Virus record (IMG/VR): IMGVR_UViG_3300011982_000022
Span: 1 to 5,206 of that record
Source of the DNA: a virus
Strand: one strand, 5' to 3'
DNA length: 5,206 nt
Shown here: positions 1 to 4,955 of the stretch, piece by piece
How positions within the stretch are numbered: position 1 is the first letter of the stretch
Layout: each line of letters begins with the position of its first letter
The notes under the pieces: generated by a model
The model's database searches: none
Seen by the model: only the letters and a program-made list of their open reading frames with translations
What the model was told of the DNA's origin: nothing
Translations under genes and position numbers: made by a program

Positions 1-99
1 ATTCTTCCTCCAAAACTGAAATAATTTTATAATTACCTTTTACTTGCGCTTTTAATTCTCGAACCATCGGCGTAAGTATCTTGTAATTCCGTCTACCAA
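1..99. repeat. Terminal redundancy copy 1; identical to 5108-5206. Circular genome, unit length 5107 nt
   Basis: Direct comparison: window 1-99 (attcttcctccaaaactgaaataattttataattacc...gtctaccaa) is base-for-base identical to 5108-5206. Microviridae genomes are circular ssDNA, so this is most simply a linearisation/assembly overlap. Confidence 0.95.
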
Positions 100-160
100 G
101 TAAACGCAAAATACGTTTAATCAATTCTAAATCTTCAACAGGTACCATTACATAATCCAT
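1..160 (-). CDS. Hypothetical small protein, 53 aa (MDYVMVPVEDLELIKRILRLLGRRNYKILTPMVRELKAQVKGNYKIISVLEEE). Sense codons are 2-160; the stop codon TGA is formed across the circular junction (5106-5107 plus 1), i.e. 5106-5108 in the duplicated copy
   Basis: ATG at 160-158 preceded by AAGGAG (169-164) with a 6-nt spacer. Hand translation of the minus strand gives an uninterrupted 53-codon frame. Same strand as all other genes. Too short for the ORF track. The stop TGA overlaps the ATG of the next ORF (TGATG). Confidence 0.5.
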   Translation of the reverse strand, partial: MDYVMVPVEDLELIKRILRLLGRRNYKILTPMVRELKAQVKGNYKIISVLEEE

Positions 161-206
161 AAATCGCTCCTTATTCTGTCTATCTGATTTACATCCCATA
201 ATGTAT

Positions 207-235
207 AGTATGTCGCCAACTTTTTCATCTGTCAA
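207..235 (-). promoter_or_regulatory. Candidate sigma70-like promoter on the minus strand: TTGACA (235-230), 17-nt spacer, CATACT (212-207), upstream of the 53-aa ORF
   Basis: Perfect -35 hexamer TTGACA. The -10 candidate CATACT keeps the conserved A2 and T6. It lies in the 64-nt gap between the 46-aa and 53-aa ORFs. The -10 is weak, and TACTAT at a 19-nt spacing is the alternative. Confidence 0.2.
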
Positions 236-365
236 GTAATTTTTTTATAAACTTATAAAAAACTACACAAACAACAACCAAAAGCACTAACATTGCCAAC
301 GCCGAAAGCAAACCAGCAACATCCATTCTAGAATTCTGCACAACATCAACATCTCTAACACCCAT
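225..365 (-). CDS. Small single-pass membrane protein, 46 aa (MGVRDVDVVQNSRMDVAGLLSALAMLVLLVVVCVVFYKFIKKLLDR)
   Basis: ATG at 365-363 with GAGGT (372-376, overlapping the VP2 stop TGA) 6 nt upstream. The frame was verified codon by codon and stops at TGA 227-225. A 22-residue uninterrupted hydrophobic core (VAGLLSALAMLVLLVVVCVVFY) is followed by a basic tail (KFIKKLLDR). Not in the ORF track (below size cutoff). Confidence 0.55.
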   Translation of the reverse strand: MGVRDVDVVQNSRMDVAGLLSALAMLVLLVVVCVVFYKFIKKLLDR

Positions 366-374
366 TTCATTACC

Positions 375-1196
375 TCACTGCATTTGTTTAAGAATAGGAT
401 TCATCGCTTTTTCAAACCATTTATTACCAAAAAGACTATCAATCGCTTTATTTCCAAGACTTGCAAAACCTTTAGCAGCATTTCCAACTTCACCATAATT
501 ATAACGCGGGTTAATACCCGTTGCATAATACTTTTGTAAATCAACAAGCGTCATAACTCTTTCCATCTGCGCCGTAAGTATATCACTCGCAATTTTATCC
601 ATCTGCATCTTATACAGATTTCCGTGAATTTTGTTCAAGTCAACATTCGAACGGCTTAAACCTGAATTCGCACGATTTAAATCTTTCTGCGAGCCATAAA
701 ATGAAGCATCACGACGAGAAGCCTCTGCTCCAATTTCACGAGCTTGATACGCTCTCGCCAAATTATCAGCAATCTGGCTATCAACAGCCGTAGACTGCGC
801 GTCAAATAATTTTCCTTGCGATACCGCGCGAGAAGTATTCGCTTGAGCTTCCTGCGTCTCCGCTGAAAGTTTACGAATTTGAGCCAGATTCGTCAATGCC
901 GCAATCGCATTCATTGCAACATCCATCTTCGAAGCATCAACTTGAGGAGCCTGCACAGGAACCGAAACGCCGGCATTTGCAGCACTACCTGCAGCAAGCG
1001 TTTTAGATAAGCCGGCAGCTTCCAAATCGGCAACACGACGCTGCACCGCATTATCCTCACGAGCAAAAATCTGCTGTTGAATACCTTTATCATACTCCAT
1101 CTTTTGATGCTGTTGAACAGCATTATATATACTAATACCACTATTCACAGTACCAGAAATCGCACCTGCTATAATCTCTGCAATCGGAGCACCCAT
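375..1196 (-). CDS. VP2: VP2-like minor capsid / DNA pilot protein, 273 aa
   Basis: ORF track 375..1196. ATG at 1196 preceded by AAGGTGG (1209-1203) with a 6-nt spacer. Gly/Ala-rich N-terminus (MGAPIAEIIAGAISGTVNSG) followed by a long Gln/Ala/Asn-rich predicted coiled-coil region, the typical composition of microvirus H/VP2 pilot proteins. Located downstream of VP1. Confidence 0.8.
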   Translation of the reverse strand: MGAPIAEIIAGAISGTVNSGISIYNAVQQHQKMEYDKGIQQQIFAREDNAVQRRVADLEAAGLSKTLAAGSAANAGVSVPVQAPQVDASKMDVAMNAIAALTNLAQIRKLSAETQEAQANTSRAVSQGKLFDAQSTAVDSQIADNLARAYQAREIGAEASRRDASFYGSQKDLNRANSGLSRSNVDLNKIHGNLYKMQMDKIASDILTAQMERVMTLVDLQKYYATGINPRYNYGEVGNAAKGFASLGNKAIDSLFGNKWFEKAMNPILKQMQ

Positions 1197-1214
1197 CTTT
1201 TACCACCTTTCGGT

Positions 1215-1260
1215 GTCATCTAGCATTATACACAACAAGAAAGGGTTAATGCTAGATGAC
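1215..1260. promoter_or_regulatory. Hairpin H1: perfect 14-bp inverted repeat (1215-1228 gtcatctagcatta / 1247-1260 taatgctagatgac) with an 18-nt loop. The loop carries TATAAT on the minus strand (1230-1225). It ends 5 nt upstream of the VP2 SD
   Basis: Read directly: the reverse complement of 1247-1260 equals 1215-1228. It sits in the only sizeable intergenic region. Confidence 0.45.
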
Positions 1261-1274
1261 CAACTCAAATTGAA

Positions 1275-1308
1275 TTAGGGGAAAGGGGTTGCGCCCCCTT
1301 TCCCCTAA
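1275..1308 (-). terminator. Hairpin H2: perfect GC-rich 14-bp stem (1275-1288 ttaggggaaagggg / 1295-1308 cccctttcccctaa) with a 6-nt loop ttgcgc. Candidate intrinsic terminator after the VP4-VP1-scaffold transcript, or origin/packaging element
   Basis: Read directly. It lies 5 nt downstream of the scaffold-like ORF stop (1313-1315) on the mRNA strand. On the minus strand the stem is followed by UUCAAUUUG, an imperfect U-tract. Confidence 0.5.
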
Positions 1309-1312
1309 AACC

Positions 1313-1702
1313 TCATTTGCCGCTTTGACTCTCTTGAGGAACATCCGATTCACCTTTGACATCAGTGGATTGCTCCGTAGCGGCAATCGTTGCATCTTGC
1401 TGTGTCTCTATTTGTTTAGCAACATTTTGAGACATTCGCAATAATGCATCTCTTTGTGCCACTGCTGCATCCACAATGTCAAAATCTTCATCACGTGTTA
1501 AATCTTCAAGAGATTCATCAATCTCACCATCAAAATCATAAATACCAAGATTACGCACAAAATCAAGGCTTTTTCCTGCTTTCAAAAATCTATCAACCTG
1601 TTGCGCTACCGAGAGCGGACGAACAAGCTGAAAATCTGAAACTTTCTTCGCATCATAAACAGGATTGACCATCTTCCAAGTCGCTGTAGTTTGTTCTGTC
1701 AT
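1313..1702 (-). CDS. Acidic internal scaffolding-like protein (VP3-like), 129 aa from ATG 1702 (track ORF 1313..1714 uses a TTG 4 codons upstream)
   Basis: ATG at 1702-1700 preceded by GAGGTG (1712-1707). Stop TGA at 1315-1313. Strongly acidic (YDFDGEIDESLEDLTRDEDFDIVDAAV...), the size and charge expected of a gokushovirus VP3 scaffold. The TTG at 1714 overlaps the VP1 stop but is a less likely start. Confidence 0.65.
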   Translation of the reverse strand: MTEQTTATWKMVNPVYDAKKVSDFQLVRPLSVAQQVDRFLKAGKSLDFVRNLGIYDFDGEIDESLEDLTRDEDFDIVDAAVAQRDALLRMSQNVAKQIETQQDATIAATEQSTDVKGESDVPQESQSGK

Positions 1703-1710
1703 TTTACACC

Positions 1711-3498
1711 TCAATGATCAATAAGACCGGGAACGGGAATAAGCGGCATCGGACGCCACGCATCAACACGCGTCAAAATCTCGATCACCGCACAATTTTC
1801 ATCATGCACCGCGAAAATATCCTTACGAGGATAACAACGTATAAACGATGAGTTCAACTGCGGAGGATTCGCCGGATCAAATTGCCGAGCCAAATGCCAA
1901 TAACCATATTTTTTACGCATATCACCGCAAACCTGCGTTGTCTTTGCACGATATTCATCATACCGCCCTTGATAACCGAACAAACCGGCAGCACCATCAC
2001 CAAGCTGCGCAGGTGTCATAACCGACGGAGACGCAACCAATTCAGCTTCACGCACTTCCTGTTCAGATAAATTAGCAAACTCGGGAAGATAGAAATCATA
2101 CCGCGACCGTCGCAACATTTCACGATGAATACCTTGCGAACTAAACGACTGGTCCGGACGCAAAAAAGCAAGACCGATTACATAGCCATGTTCACGAGCG
2201 CTAAACTTTCCAACAAAATCACCACCAATCGAAACACCACGAGACGCTAAATTACCTTGCGGACTGTTCGAAACCGACGAAGATGTCTGAACAACCTCAT
2301 TAACCAATACAACCGATTTAGTACCTCCAATAAAATGCGGACGCTGGAGTGTATCATCATTCGGCGCTACACCAAACACAGACAAAAGACCTTCAACATA
2401 CCGAGCACCTCCACGCGCCATTCGCTCCATAAAACGTTGGGTTTGAAACATCAAACGCATATCCGATACATCCGCAAAACTTGACGATTCCAACGGAAAA
2501 CGAGAATAAGCTAAACGCTGAGGAACACCCTCAGGTTGCTTAGTAGTAGACACACGATTATTTGCTGGCAAAATATTCCCAGTATTATTAACTATAAGTT
2601 TTTGCTCAGTATCATTTATATAATTTGAATCAAAATCAGCATAATTTGAATTAAAAGTAGGAAATGGCGGATCTTCCATAAAAGCAGCATTAGCAGTACG
2701 TCTATGAAAACGTTCTAAATATAATCTTGCATTATCCACAGAAGTAGGAACCAATGTAAAACCAGGAGAACTCAAAGGCAAAGCAACCGGCTCACCACGC
2801 TGTTGCCACGGCAAAGACGATGTAAAATAATTTGAGGTCCACGTACACAAGAACAATCCCATATCATCGAGCTTTCGTTCATCTTCCAAGTTCTCATTTC
2901 GATAACATTCGTTGTAAATATAATTATACGCAATCAACGGAAAAGCAAGCGGACAATACGCCGAATAATCTGTATCCGCACCATTCTTTCCAACATCACT
3001 CAAATCTCCAAATCCAACAGACGTCGGAAATCCAAACGCATCCCAGAGCGAACCGACAGCATCAGCTTTTCCAGTTCGAGGAACAAGGGCGCCACTGACA
3101 ACTTTTGAACCAGAAATTCGAACATCATTTTTATTCGGAATCCAGAGGGGCAGGGTAGGGGTAATACCGGCTTCAGTTACTCCATCACCTTTCTTTCCGC
3201 CAAAAATAAAAGTCTCCCAACCTTTTGCAATTTCGGGAAACTTCTGCTGATACAATACACGAGAGGGAACATACCAGAAATGCGTTATAAACTTAATACC
3301 AGTCATCGGAACCGACACCATCGGTAAAAGCCGAACAAGCGCCGAAGCGCTTATTTTCAACACATCACCAGGAATAACTTCTCGGAAATATACAGGATGA
3401 ACTTCACCCATATCACAAGAATACATCTTATGATTATCCAAACGGAACCGCGACCGTTTCAAATGCCGAACAGGCACTTGTCCGAATACATCCATCAT
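1711..3498 (-). CDS. VP1: Major capsid protein VP1 (F-like jelly-roll), 595 aa
   Basis: ORF track. N-terminus RSRFRLDNHKMYSCDMGEVHPVYFREVIPGDVL matches the conserved gokushovirus VP1 start (RNRF.L...DMG.L.P...EVLPGD). AAGGAG is 4 nt upstream of the ATG. The ATG (3498-3496) overlaps the upstream ORF stop (ATGA). The size is typical of Gokushovirinae VP1. Confidence 0.93.
   Translation of the reverse strand: MMDVFGQVPVRHLKRSRFRLDNHKMYSCDMGEVHPVYFREVIPGDVLKISASALVRLLPMVSVPMTGIKFITHFWYVPSRVLYQQKFPEIAKGWETFIFGGKKGDGVTEAGITPTLPLWIPNKNDVRISGSKVVSGALVPRTGKADAVGSLWDAFGFPTSVGFGDLSDVGKNGADTDYSAYCPLAFPLIAYNYIYNECYRNENLEDERKLDDMGLFLCTWTSNYFTSSLPWQQRGEPVALPLSSPGFTLVPTSVDNARLYLERFHRRTANAAFMEDPPFPTFNSNYADFDSNYINDTEQKLIVNNTGNILPANNRVSTTKQPEGVPQRLAYSRFPLESSSFADVSDMRLMFQTQRFMERMARGGARYVEGLLSVFGVAPNDDTLQRPHFIGGTKSVVLVNEVVQTSSSVSNSPQGNLASRGVSIGGDFVGKFSAREHGYVIGLAFLRPDQSFSSQGIHREMLRRSRYDFYLPEFANLSEQEVREAELVASPSVMTPAQLGDGAAGLFGYQGRYDEYRAKTTQVCGDMRKKYGYWHLARQFDPANPPQLNSSFIRCYPRKDIFAVHDENCAVIEILTRVDAWRPMPLIPVPGLIDH
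2620..2661. repeat. Imperfect 21-nt tandem duplication inside VP1 (2620-2640 ataatttgaatcaaaatcagc / 2641-2661 ataatttgaattaaaagtagg; 17 of 21 identical), encoding the 7-aa repeat PTFNSNY/ADFDSNY
   Basis: Direct alignment of the two adjacent 21-mers. It lies in a visibly AT-rich island (about 2560-2700) of the VP1 gene. Confidence 0.6.
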
Positions 3499-3818
3499 TC
3501 AGCTCCTTGCGAAATCTGTTCCGCAGAAATAGGCTCAACCTCTGATTCAACCGAAGCATCTTCATCATACAAAACATCACACGCTTTCATTACTTCTTGA
3601 GGAATTATTTTTATATCTTCAGAAAAAACAATTCCCGTTTCTTCATCATAATCGCACATCGAAATCAACGAAAAATCATCCAACGAAATATTCTTTTGCT
3701 TTACCATAACACGATTCACCGTATCTGCAAAAATACGCTTCGCGACACCGTCATTCTTTGCATTGAACACATTTCCACACAATTCAGCAACCTTATCGTA
3801 AATACAATAGATTTTCAT
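3495..3818 (-). CDS. Hypothetical acidic protein, 107 aa, in the VP5 / protein-C position between the replication initiator and VP1
   Basis: ORF track. ATG at 3818 preceded by GAGGTG with a 5-nt spacer (GTGAGGTGTAAAAATG). It begins 2 nt after the VP4 stop, and its stop overlaps the VP1 start (ATGA at 3495-3498). The C-terminus is acidic (DEDASVESEVEPISAEQ). Confidence 0.75.
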   Translation of the reverse strand: MKIYCIYDKVAELCGNVFNAKNDGVAKRIFADTVNRVMVKQKNISLDDFSLISMCDYDEETGIVFSEDIKIIPQEVMKACDVLYDEDASVESEVEPISAEQISQGAE

Positions 3819-3820
3819 TT

Positions 3821-4690
3821 TTACACCTCACTATGTTTGTTATAAAGCGATATCTTTGAATTGACAGTCTGTTCACGCAATCGAGCATTTTTCCTACGCT
3901 CCGAAAGATAATACATGTATGCCATATCATAATCATTCTGATCAGACAGCGAAAACTCGGAACCAAACTTCGACGAAAAAATACGCGCAAAACGCAAAAA
4001 ATCTTCCTGCTCTTTATCACGCATCAATTCATTAAGCCGTTCCTTGTCCACATGGATTTTTTCTCGGTAATAACGAGGCAACGCCATCACATGCTTATCA
4101 ATTCGCACTAAACCGCTTTCCTTTAAAAAATCTGCATTCTCGATCGCAAAACCGAGACCTAAACCACGCGAACAAAGCGAGAAGGGCGGAGTAAGACCAT
4201 TTTCTTGATAATACGTCTTTCCAGACTTACCGTACAATTTTTTCTGCACATAGCCAGCAACATACCTACAACTATCATACGTTACCGATCCAATAGCTTT
4301 AGACGGCAAACACGCCCAATCTGCATACATCCACGCATTTTTAATTAACATTCTGTCAACCAAATCATTGGAATCCAGACCATATACTATTGCATGATAA
4401 TGTGGACGATGTGTTACATCACCATATTCACCAACCGCATAATATTTTATCTTGCGACCACCTAAAGACTTGCGTAATCGTTTGAAAAACAGCTGTACGT
4501 GCCTTTTACGTAGATTAGGCGGCAGATCTGCATCACGATATGTCAACGTGATAAACGCCGCACTTTTCCAATCTCTCAACTCAAACATTAAACGCATAGC
4601 CCATTGGTGAGACCGCATGATTTTACACGGCATGCAATGACCACAGGGCAGTGGAACACCGCCCTTATAAAAAGGGCGGACACAAACCAT
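3821..4690 (-). CDS. VP4: Rolling-circle replication initiation protein VP4 (HUH endonuclease, superfamily I; phiX174 gene A-like), 289 aa
   Basis: ORF track. Motif I FITLTY, motif II HYHAIVY, motif III YVAGYVQKK with two Tyr (compare phiX174 A YVAKYVNKK). N-terminal Cys cluster PCGHCMPC. The ATG at 4690 lies 2 nt after the stop of the Arg-rich peptide. Confidence 0.92.
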   Translation of the reverse strand: MVCVRPFYKGGVPLPCGHCMPCKIMRSHQWAMRLMFELRDWKSAAFITLTYRDADLPPNLRKRHVQLFFKRLRKSLGGRKIKYYAVGEYGDVTHRPHYHAIVYGLDSNDLVDRMLIKNAWMYADWACLPSKAIGSVTYDSCRYVAGYVQKKLYGKSGKTYYQENGLTPPFSLCSRGLGLGFAIENADFLKESGLVRIDKHVMALPRYYREKIHVDKERLNELMRDKEQEDFLRFARIFSSKFGSEFSLSDQNDYDMAYMYYLSERRKNARLREQTVNSKISLYNKHSEV

Positions 4691-4692
4691 AT

Positions 4693-4764
4693 TTACCTGC
4701 TGAAACCGCCTCTACGACGGCTATACTTCGTTATACGACGATGACGTCTTCGACGACGGCTCAC
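4693..4764 (-). CDS. Arginine-rich 23-aa peptide (M/V-SRRRRRHRRITKYSRRRGGFSR), GTG start. Candidate DNA-binding/packaging protein analogous to phiX174 J or gokushovirus VP8
   Basis: Hand translation of the minus strand: GTG at 4764-4762 preceded by a perfect GGAGG (4775-4771) with a 6-nt spacer, in-frame stop TAA at 4695-4693, and an upstream in-frame stop that bounds the ORF. 12 of 23 residues are Arg. Its GTG overlaps the TGA of the upstream 64-aa ORF (GTGA), and it ends 2 nt before the VP4 ATG. Not in the ORF track. Confidence 0.55.
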   Translation of the reverse strand: MSRRRRRHRRITKYSRRRGGFSR

Positions 4765-4955
4765 TTTTTACCTCCGGAAATCAATGAAACACCGGCTACC
4801 GTGCCAAAAATAGATTGCAATATTTTGACTGCAATATCAACGCCGCTATTGATGTGAGCAAGCGACTCGTTGCCCAAAACAATAGAGAGAGCGCAAAACA
4901 CAACAGCAAGAAAAAACATGAGCATTTTCACCCATTTATTCTTGAGAAATTCCAT
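4761..4955 (-). CDS. Small membrane protein, 64 aa (MEFLKNKWVKMLMFFLAVVFCALSIVLGNESLAHINSGVDIAVKILQSIFGTVAGVSLISGGKK), using the internal ATG of track ORF 4761..5024
   Basis: ATG at 4955-4953 has GGAGGT (4968-4963) with a 5-nt spacer. The track start at 5024 has no SD within range. Lys-rich N-terminus, then an 18-residue hydrophobic helix MLMFFLAVVFCALSIVLG, then a second weakly hydrophobic segment (IAVKILQSIFGTVAGVSLI). Confidence 0.6.
   Translation of the reverse strand: MEFLKNKWVKMLMFFLAVVFCALSIVLGNESLAHINSGVDIAVKILQSIFGTVAGVSLISGGKK

Follow-up and report, generated by a model that had tools for sequence, protein, structure and literature searches.

The microvirus phiX174 encodes two membrane proteins, the lysis protein E, in which a short external N-terminus is combined with a basic cytoplasmic part, and protein K. 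E is an inhibitor of MraY and is restricted to the phiX174 group, the sole group of microviruses in which the mechanism of lysis has been elucidated (PMC3394797; PMC12596118); it is confined to one genus, and a peptidase is found in only a minority of microviruses (PMC3394797, PMC9239249, PMC12596118). Protein K is non-essential and is reported to modulate burst size (bioRxiv 10.64898/2026.07.25.740675). Outside the microviruses, LysM of phage M, a 37-residue single-pass inhibitor of MurJ, is enough to cause lysis (PMC12506998), and single-gene lysis proteins are typically small, diverse and rapidly evolving (PMC7693330).

XerCD-dependent integration at dif is known for enterobacterial gokushoviruses, which share the attP pattern of the phage described below; the text of the paper on the EC6098 gokushovirus makes no mention of transmembrane or hypothetical proteins (PMC7062461). 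Searches of the literature returned no description of a microvirus prophage of Treponema or of a small transmembrane lysis protein of a gokushovirus. Here we describe ORF46, a reading frame of 46 codons that follows the VP2 gene of a dif-integrating microvirus and whose most likely role, proposed tentatively, is that of a membrane effector of the single-gene lysis type.

Genome organization

The window, that is, the whole stretch of DNA that was analysed (5206 bases), represents a circularly permuted genome of 5107 bp with a 99-nt terminal repeat. The minus strand carries all genes:

First in gene order, minus strand: a 53-aa ORF, then a 56-aa ORF
4761-4955, minus strand: ORF64, a hydrophobic ORF of 64 aa
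4693-4764, minus strand: arginine-rich ORF of 23 codons, VSRRRRRHRRITKYSRRRGGFSR
3821-4690, minus strand: Rep (PF23343)
3495-3818, minus strand: ORF5-family protein
1711-3498, minus strand: major capsid protein, VP1 (Phage_F, E = 1.5e-73)
Between the major capsid and VP2 genes, minus strand: acidic scaffold-like protein of 129-133 aa
375-1196, minus strand: VP2/pilot-like (minor capsid) gene, 273 aa, to which ORF46 is translationally coupled

This gene set identifies the phage as a gokushovirus-like member of the Microviridae. The 273-aa gene upstream of ORF46 plausibly encodes VP2, the pilot protein; its PHROG matches, to 'pilot protein for DNA ejection', are weak (E about 3e-4), and its homologues carry the name 'minor capsid protein' of microviruses. 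Every other gene of this genome is preceded by a Shine-Dalgarno (SD) motif of the GAGG type, 5-8 nt upstream.

The arginine-rich ORF, whose GTG start overlaps the ORF64 stop codon (GTGA), resembles the small DNA-binding packaging peptides of microviruses and was missed by gene callers in the relatives.

The capsid protein is isolated, VP1 being at most 40% identical to anything across the scanned collections. The annotated phage collection held no close DNA relative; IMG/VR yielded no relative by VP2 and, by VP1, only ones at 40% identity or less; GTDB genomes yielded none by VP1; and a metagenome scan with a VP1 alignment found relatives at 38% identity or less only.

The VP2-ORF46 junction

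The segment beyond VP2 is organized as follows:

225-365, minus strand: ORF46 coding sequence, 46 codons plus a TGA stop at 225-227
372-376, minus strand: SD sequence GAGGT, lying across the VP2 stop, with a 6-nt spacer to the ATG
321-365, minus strand: codons 1-15, hydrophilic, net-acidic N-terminus, predicted to be periplasmic
255-320, minus strand: codons 16-37, uncharged hydrophobic helix of 22 residues, predicted to be the single transmembrane segment
228-254, minus strand: codons 38-46, basic tail KFIKKLLDR, net charge +3, predicted to be cytoplasmic

On the minus strand the junction reads ...CAG TGA GGT AAT GAA ATG GGT..., with the VP2 stop TGA at 377-375, GAGGT at 376-372, the spacer AATGAA at 371-366, the ORF46 ATG at 365-363 and its TGA at 227-225. 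An earlier note on this DNA, made from the sequence alone, had placed a GAGGT ribosome-binding sequence across the VP2 stop with an ATG 6 nt later, and the positions bear it out; its view of ORF46 as a gene coupled to VP2 likewise holds. The product, MGVRDVDVVQNSRMDVAGLLSALAMLVLLVVVCVVFYKFIKKLLDR (46 aa), has the hydrophilic 15-mer, the 22-residue hydrophobic core and the basic KFIKKLLDR tail that the same note had described. Residues 1-15 carry a net charge of -1, and residues 16-37 are uncharged without a break, with a highest 19-residue Kyte-Doolittle mean of 3.03.

Integration at dif in oral treponemes

The relatives of this phage are prophages. On one side they are bordered by host genes for a penicillin-binding protein and FtsW/RodA and on the other by the convergent genes for a nucleotidyltransferase-HAD protein, a GHMP kinase and Mfd, so that the integration point lies between ftsW and the convergent nucleotidyltransferase gene. 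One prophage host record is named Treponema socranskii, and the other prophages have flanks that match it at 88-96% identity; the best GTDB matches of a flanking enzyme are to Treponema, at about 80% amino-acid identity. The attachment sites, delimited by comparison, are:

191-218, plus strand: dif-like attP of 28 bp, ACATCCCATAA TGTATA GTATGTCGCCA (attL/attR/attP comparison)
About 1040-1075 in the related contig L001: attL
About 6150-6185 in L001: attR

The XerC arm and central hexamer of attP (ACATCCCATAA TGTATA) are identical to the host site, and the XerD arm is divergent. attP lies 6 nt beyond the ORF46 stop, and ORF46 is the last gene before attR. Contig L179 has the same circular junction as the window, which indicates that the free phage form is real. 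On these comparisons the phage is classed as an integrase-less, XerCD-type temperate microvirus, and its clade as temperate, dif-integrating microviruses of bacteria of the Treponema socranskii group (oral Treponema).

Further traces of Xer-related sequence were seen near the site. The XerD-arm sequence of the host, GGTAGACAGAA(T), is repeated about 130 bp upstream of the host dif (L001, about 945-980), and a near copy, GATAGACAGAAT, occurs in the phage (window 172-184), directly past the XerC arm and before the first gene; earlier integrations may have left these copies behind, or they may serve as an accessory site for Xer binding. In L014, whose ORF46 is like that of the window, the DNA past the attachment site (about 455-684) is A+T-rich and wholly different, which suggests a second integration site or a second host.

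Promoter-like and terminator-like elements

Two elements bear on how ORF46 and its neighbours would be expressed:

207-235, minus strand: best sigma-70-like promoter match in window positions 1-1400, TTGACA-17-CATACT
1275-1308, minus strand: terminator-like hairpin, a G+C-rich stem-loop with a 14-bp stem, then a T-rich tract

The promoter-like -35 element TTGACA (235-230) falls within the ORF46 codons for L-D-R, and the -10 element CATACT (212-207) sits on the boundary between the XerD arm and the central region of attP; the element is directed toward the 53-aa gene and the early genes. The sequence CTTGACA...TGAAAAAGTTGGCG is kept in all lineages, including those in which it is non-coding. 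Integration at dif would leave the predicted promoter at attR and the early genes at attL, and this separation could possibly act as a repressor-free means of silencing the prophage.

Every relative has the hairpin, which lies between the scaffold-like gene and VP2 and whose stem shows compensatory changes; probably it serves as an attenuating terminator and reduces expression of VP2 and ORF46. The same interval contains an inverted repeat, gtcatctagcatta...taatgctagatgac (window 1215-1260), perfect over 14 bp (17 bp in relatives) and with TATAAT inside it, which lies directly upstream of the VP2 ribosome-binding site and is kept in all relatives. Possible functions of this repeat are those of a promoter, of an operator, or of a hairpin origin from which the complementary strand would be made on packaged single-stranded DNA.

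ORF46 is very probably a translated gene

We regard it as nearly certain that ORF46 is a genuine, translated gene. The earlier note had looked to relatives lacking an intact frame as the observation that would speak against it; every related contig that extends past VP2 retains the frame, which is intact in all 22 of the 22 that reach the position. A search of 5.8 billion proteins recovered four 46-aa versions (100, 98, 80 and 80% identical), whose contigs represent three nucleotide lineages, here termed type A, with the frame intact in each. Among these three lineages substitutions concentrate at third codon positions, and dN/dS (Nei-Gojobori) is 0.16-0.5 in the ORF46 frame as against about 0.7-3 in the other two frames. 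All lineages retain the SD sequence (TGAGGT or GAGGTGA), with a spacer that varies in length by 1 nt or more; in the L006 lineage a 1-nt deletion is confined to the spacer between SD and ATG, leaving ORF46 intact.

Chance does not account for the frame. Among 500 first-order Markov genomes of the same composition, none contained a comparable ORF (ATG start, 40-100 aa, SD-like motif, KD19 of at least 2.5), whereas the real gene strand contains two, ORF46 and the 64-aa ORF; a chance origin is thereby excluded.

A different reading is that the region is kept for DNA-level reasons, as a promoter upstream region or as Xer accessory sequence near attP, with the frame incidental. The 3' end of ORF46 does overlap the conserved TTGACA element, 6 nt from the dif-like site, and a T-rich coding strand favours hydrophobic codons. 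Such constraints would not, however, be expected to give codon-periodic substitutions with dN/dS below 1 in the ORF46 frame only, nor a conserved SD and start codon, nor a frame and architecture that outlast indels and cassette replacement; with none of the 500 simulated genomes holding such an ORF, and an Rfam search of the region giving no match, we consider this reading very improbable.

Other interpretations of the same DNA can be set aside. ORF46 continues the frame of VP2 in the window (TGA GGT AAT GAA ATG), but extension of VP2 by stop-codon read-through is rejected, the L006 lineage being out of frame and the spacer of L182 having further in-frame stops. A hydrophobic frame of 27 aa across the same DNA (287-370), which the earlier note had rightly discarded, shows no purifying selection (omega 0.7-2.4) and loses its ATG in one lineage through the 1-nt spacer deletion.

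The homologue of ORF46 in the T. socranskii genome record is annotated only as 'hypothetical protein'; whatever its role, the frame is worth calling as a gene by annotators.

The ORF46 family and its predicted topology

The family comprises 13 distinct proteins of 39-53 aa, all encoded at the same site after VP2, in phages whose VP2 identity falls as low as 72%. Relatives found through VP2, including the Treponema socranskii prophage, have ORFs of 40-51 aa in the same place with a tail of a second type (type B), and further members came from a search with one type-B relative. A profile search of 1.84 billion representative proteins added only one, P0005, to the four 46-aa versions; the family is confined to this phage clade and is, on present sequence collections, a clade-restricted orphan.

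Two unrelated tails occur, the type-B tail RWLNRKDRK (+4) standing in place of the type-A tail KFIKKLLDR (+3). P0005 is homologous to ORF46 over its first 30 residues but has ...ALIIAIIRWLNRKDRK in place of the latter half of the helix and the tail; the codons of the former terminus persist behind the new stop as a non-coding relic. That the architecture has been kept through indels and such a cassette swap argues strongly that a membrane peptide is translated from the frame.

Across eight variants for which values were computed, the N-terminal flank has 5-15 residues and a net charge of zero or below, the uncharged span has 22-29 residues and the tail is +3 or +4; alignment gives the remaining variants the same layout. 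The N-terminal segment is the most variable part of the family, the external segment ranging from 3 to 18 residues, with about 3 residues before the helix in the shortest variant, P0132. The transmembrane sequence is itself poorly conserved save for an M-L-V core. A shrinkable N-terminus, together with an architecture maintained through the swap, shows that what matters is the helix and the basic tail and not the external N-terminus.

Because the N-terminal flank has a net charge of zero or below and the C-terminal flank is +3 or +4, the positive-inside rule predicts that the N-terminus is outside and the C-terminus inside. An AlphaFold model of ORF46 consists of a single unbroken helix over residues 3-45 (mean pLDDT 81.6, above 90 in the core helix); the run, on five family members, yielded a single helix, a result that says nothing on function. 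Throughout the family there is a hydrophobic helix of at least 19 residues, a concentration of positive charge on one flank and no cleavable signal peptide, the features that define the structural class. These predictions support ORF46 as a small single-helix (bitopic) membrane protein. The earlier note had spoken of a small bitopic inner-membrane protein, E-like or spanin-like: the bitopic architecture, with its hydrophobic span and charged flanks, stands, and homology to E and the spanin comparison do not.

Relationship to known protein families

Profiles of the E family in Pfam or PHROGs gave no match to ORF46 at E of 0.1 or below and none to other family members at E of 1 or below, and the family profile, run against PDB sequences, did not match lysis protein E at E of 10 or below. 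ORF46 has no match to Pfam Microvir_lysis and no conserved proline in the helix, and its gene is not overprinted: it is a separate cistron after VP2, overlapping VP2 only through the SD sequence and stop codon, and does not lie inside the scaffold gene. With the profile searches negative and the cistron standing alone, homology to phiX174 E is rejected.

A spanin would be at odds with a periplasmic segment of only 3-18 residues, with the want of a lipobox and of a partner, and with a sole cysteine that sits in mid-helix (V-V-V-C context) and is missing from most type-B members. A lipoprotein or signal peptide is likewise rejected, the lipobox being absent and the N-terminus acidic. A holin acting with an endolysin was dismissed because no peptidoglycan-hydrolase domain was found in the ORFs scanned; the best holin profile match (phrog_3488, E = 0.073, one type-B member) is insignificant. 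Searches of ORF46 and related members against Pfam, PHROGs, NCBIfam, PADLOC and PDB gave only sub-threshold matches to generic transmembrane segments, those in the PDB profile search being generic single-pass helices such as BST2, sodium-channel beta-1 and ErbB2.

One set of sub-threshold matches points to a specific alternative, namely a major coat protein of the inovirus type (Pf1/Pf3-like), captured from a filamentous phage that shared the dif integration site. Type-A members match PF05356 (Phage_Coat_B) at E of 5e-4 to 0.1, and length, topology and charge layout are equal (acidic N-terminus, transmembrane segment, basic DNA-binding tail); inoviruses, moreover, integrate through XerCD at dif, as this phage group does. 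Yet the type-A scores of 17.3, 20.4 and 13.1 bits are below the Pfam gathering threshold of 23.5 bits and cover the transmembrane segment and tail only; type-B members do not match PF05356 and match many unrelated transmembrane families instead; no coat protein appeared in the PDB profile search; and an icosahedral microvirus with an arginine-rich DNA-binding peptide of its own has no use for a filament coat. A captured coat protein is thus exceedingly improbable. Coat proteins of the Pf3/Pf1 type insert by a YidC-type route, and as such are a useful model for the insertion of ORF46.

Proposed role in lysis

The most likely role of ORF46, put forward tentatively, is that of a candidate membrane effector of the single-gene lysis type. 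We infer membrane insertion, topology, timing of expression and lytic activity, which would combine as follows. ORF46 would be the last cistron of a late (structural) operon, and ribosomes ending VP2 would re-initiate on it via the GAGGT that overlaps the VP2 stop. The product, a single helix, would enter the cytoplasmic membrane without a signal peptide, its acidic N-terminus outward and its basic tail in the cytoplasm, with the hydrophobic helix and the tail forming the functional core. Produced late and in small amounts, the peptide would block a membrane step of peptidoglycan precursor supply or damage the membrane, and the cell would burst without a phage-encoded wall-degrading enzyme.

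Several observations place this role first. The genome lacks a muralytic enzyme, as no muralytic or other lysis-related domain was found in any of its proteins with Pfam or PHROGs. Among its conserved small ORFs, ORF46 and ORF64 alone are strongly hydrophobic, and overprinting yielded no convincing candidate: alternative-frame ORFs that might correspond to E-like genes elsewhere in the genome are broken in relatives or lie in near-invariant, uninformative DNA, and the only mildly hydrophobic one that stays open in all relatives is a 49-aa frame (2003-1854) within a conserved stretch of VP1. Coupling to the last structural gene, downstream of the terminator-like hairpin, suits a late and scarce product. 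The VP2-ORF46 segment is the fastest evolving of the genome in comparison among relatives, as is typical of single-gene lysis proteins, and the case of phage M shows that a single-pass peptide of 37 residues can suffice.

Against a lytic role, ORF46 has no sequence similarity to any known lysis protein, and its weakly conserved transmembrane sequence would suit a generic anchor no less than a specific inhibitor. No counterpart follows VP2 in distant gokushovirus-like genomes (no transmembrane ORF was seen there in the two inspected, L015 and L016). The lysis gene could conceivably be overprinted in a large gene, for example as the 2003-1854 frame, or it may be ORF64. The latter has an N-terminal transmembrane segment and a weaker second hydrophobic stretch with KK at its end. 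It is almost invariant between lineages whose VP2 is only 72% identical, a much tighter constraint than that on ORF46, and is an equally plausible lysis or holin-like candidate. Finally, lysogenic-conversion or exclusion genes, too, typically lie at the prophage end near the attachment site.

The last of these points leads to superinfection exclusion, in which ORF46 at the inner membrane of lysogens or infected cells would keep related phages that arrive later from delivering their DNA through the VP2 pilot. Exclusion of this kind is known from small proteins of the inner membrane in some tailed phages, such as HK97 gp15 and T4 Imm. In favour are the position of ORF46 as the last prophage gene, adjoining attR, its coupling to VP2 and the location of both in the most divergent segment, as expected of an arms race between entry and exclusion; carriers of gokushoviruses also show superinfection immunity (PMC7062461). 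On the other hand, coupling to a structural gene means that late-operon transcription would be needed in a quiescent lysogen, and the periplasmic N-terminus, the obvious contact surface for a pilot protein, is reduced to 3 residues in P0132. PADLOC models gave no match at E of 1 or below, although that library is not designed for small exclusion peptides. We regard exclusion as unlikely, if still worth weighing beside lysis.

ORF46 might also be a membrane protein that is accessory and not itself lytic, affecting burst size, serving assembly or as an anchor for VP2, or acting as an antiholin-like partner or regulator of an ORF64 effector. Both conserved transmembrane mini-proteins coexist in every relative, phiX174 likewise has a non-essential K beside E, and the contrast between an almost invariant ORF64 and a plastic ORF46 suggests that ORF64 is under the stricter functional constraint. 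A dispensable gene should, however, have been lost or broken somewhere in genomes of 5.1 kb that are tightly constrained in size, whereas all of the roughly 22 contigs keep ORF46, which is under clear purifying selection, so that an accessory role appears distinctly unlikely.

To return to lysis, the elements above can be joined into a single and doubtful reading. ORF46 would be the first lysis protein of any microvirus outside the phiX174 group, a 'protein antibiotic' of 39-53 residues that kills a spirochaete via a transmembrane helix and a basic tail, possibly by interfering with some stage in the supply of cell-wall precursors in Treponema. The family would be modular, with an exchange of tails between two forms, and the last codons of ORF46 would double as the -35 element of an early promoter that dif integration splits from the early genes.

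Implications

Lysis by microviruses other than phiX174 is largely obscure, and this clade offers a compact case that can be tested, with a genome of 5.1 kb, no wall-degrading enzyme and just two conserved membrane mini-proteins. Oral treponemes are periodontal pathogens for which genetic tools and described phages are both scarce. Were ORF46 lytic, it would provide a new peptide inhibitor that acts in these bacteria; were it an exclusion factor, it would account for the superinfection immunity of gokushovirus carriers. Nothing here points to an unprecedented mechanism, and the value of the locus lies in the handle that it gives on exit or exclusion in non-phiX microviruses and on the phages of oral treponemes.

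Comparison with described systems

Like the gokushovirus prophages of the EC6098 type, this phage is dif-integrated, has a divergent XerD arm in the phage motif and lacks an integrase (PMC7062461); it differs in its host, a member of the Spirochaetota, and in the gene order VP1-VP3-VP2. A second type of microvirus prophage, with the order VP2-Rep-VP1, was observed in Treponema succinifaciens-like genomes in the same ftsW-to-mfd neighbourhood; it carries a hydrophobic ORF of 33 aa (L184, 4796-4897; L186, 6858-6959) whose ATG overlaps the VP2 stop (ATGA). The position of this ORF parallels that of ORF46, but the two have no sequence similarity.

The earlier note had thought two transmembrane mini-proteins unusual for an ssDNA phage of 5 kb, a view that does not hold, since phiX174 has both E and K and a survey shows others. 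The survey covered 47 roughly complete gokushovirus-like contigs; small hydrophobic ORFs (non-overlapped, SD-preceded, 25-100 aa, KD19 of at least 1.8) occurred in 11 of them, with two such ORFs in two; these ORFs are mutually unrelated and vary in position. phiX174 K, as a second small hydrophobic protein of a microvirus, resembles ORF46 in kind, but its gene overprints the A/C genes of the early region, a position like that of ORF64, and it shares no homology with ORF46.

The Pf3 and Pf1 coat proteins are similar to ORF46 in length (about 44-46 aa), in having no signal peptide and in the succession of acidic outside, transmembrane segment and basic inside; the Pfam scores are sub-threshold and limited to type A, and ORF46 would have no role as a filament coat. 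HK97 gp15 and proteins of the T4 Imm type are also small membrane proteins, near a prophage end, that might block entry, but they have no homology to ORF46, and ORF46, being coupled to a structural gene, is no autonomously transcribed moron.

LysM (SglM) of the ssRNA phage M, a member of an unrelated class of phages, shows no sequence similarity to ORF46, which is a candidate only; the two are of the same size class and share a single membrane helix. phiX174 E differs from ORF46 in sequence, in length (91 aa as against 46 aa), in a helix proline that is not conserved in ORF46 and in being overprinted in the external scaffold gene where ORF46 stands alone, and the host of ORF46 is a spirochaete. 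The likeness lies in the layout: E, as is predicted for ORF46, is a small single-pass membrane protein of a microvirus, with a short external N-terminus, a basic cytoplasmic part and late expression, in a phage that, like this one, has no muralytic enzyme.
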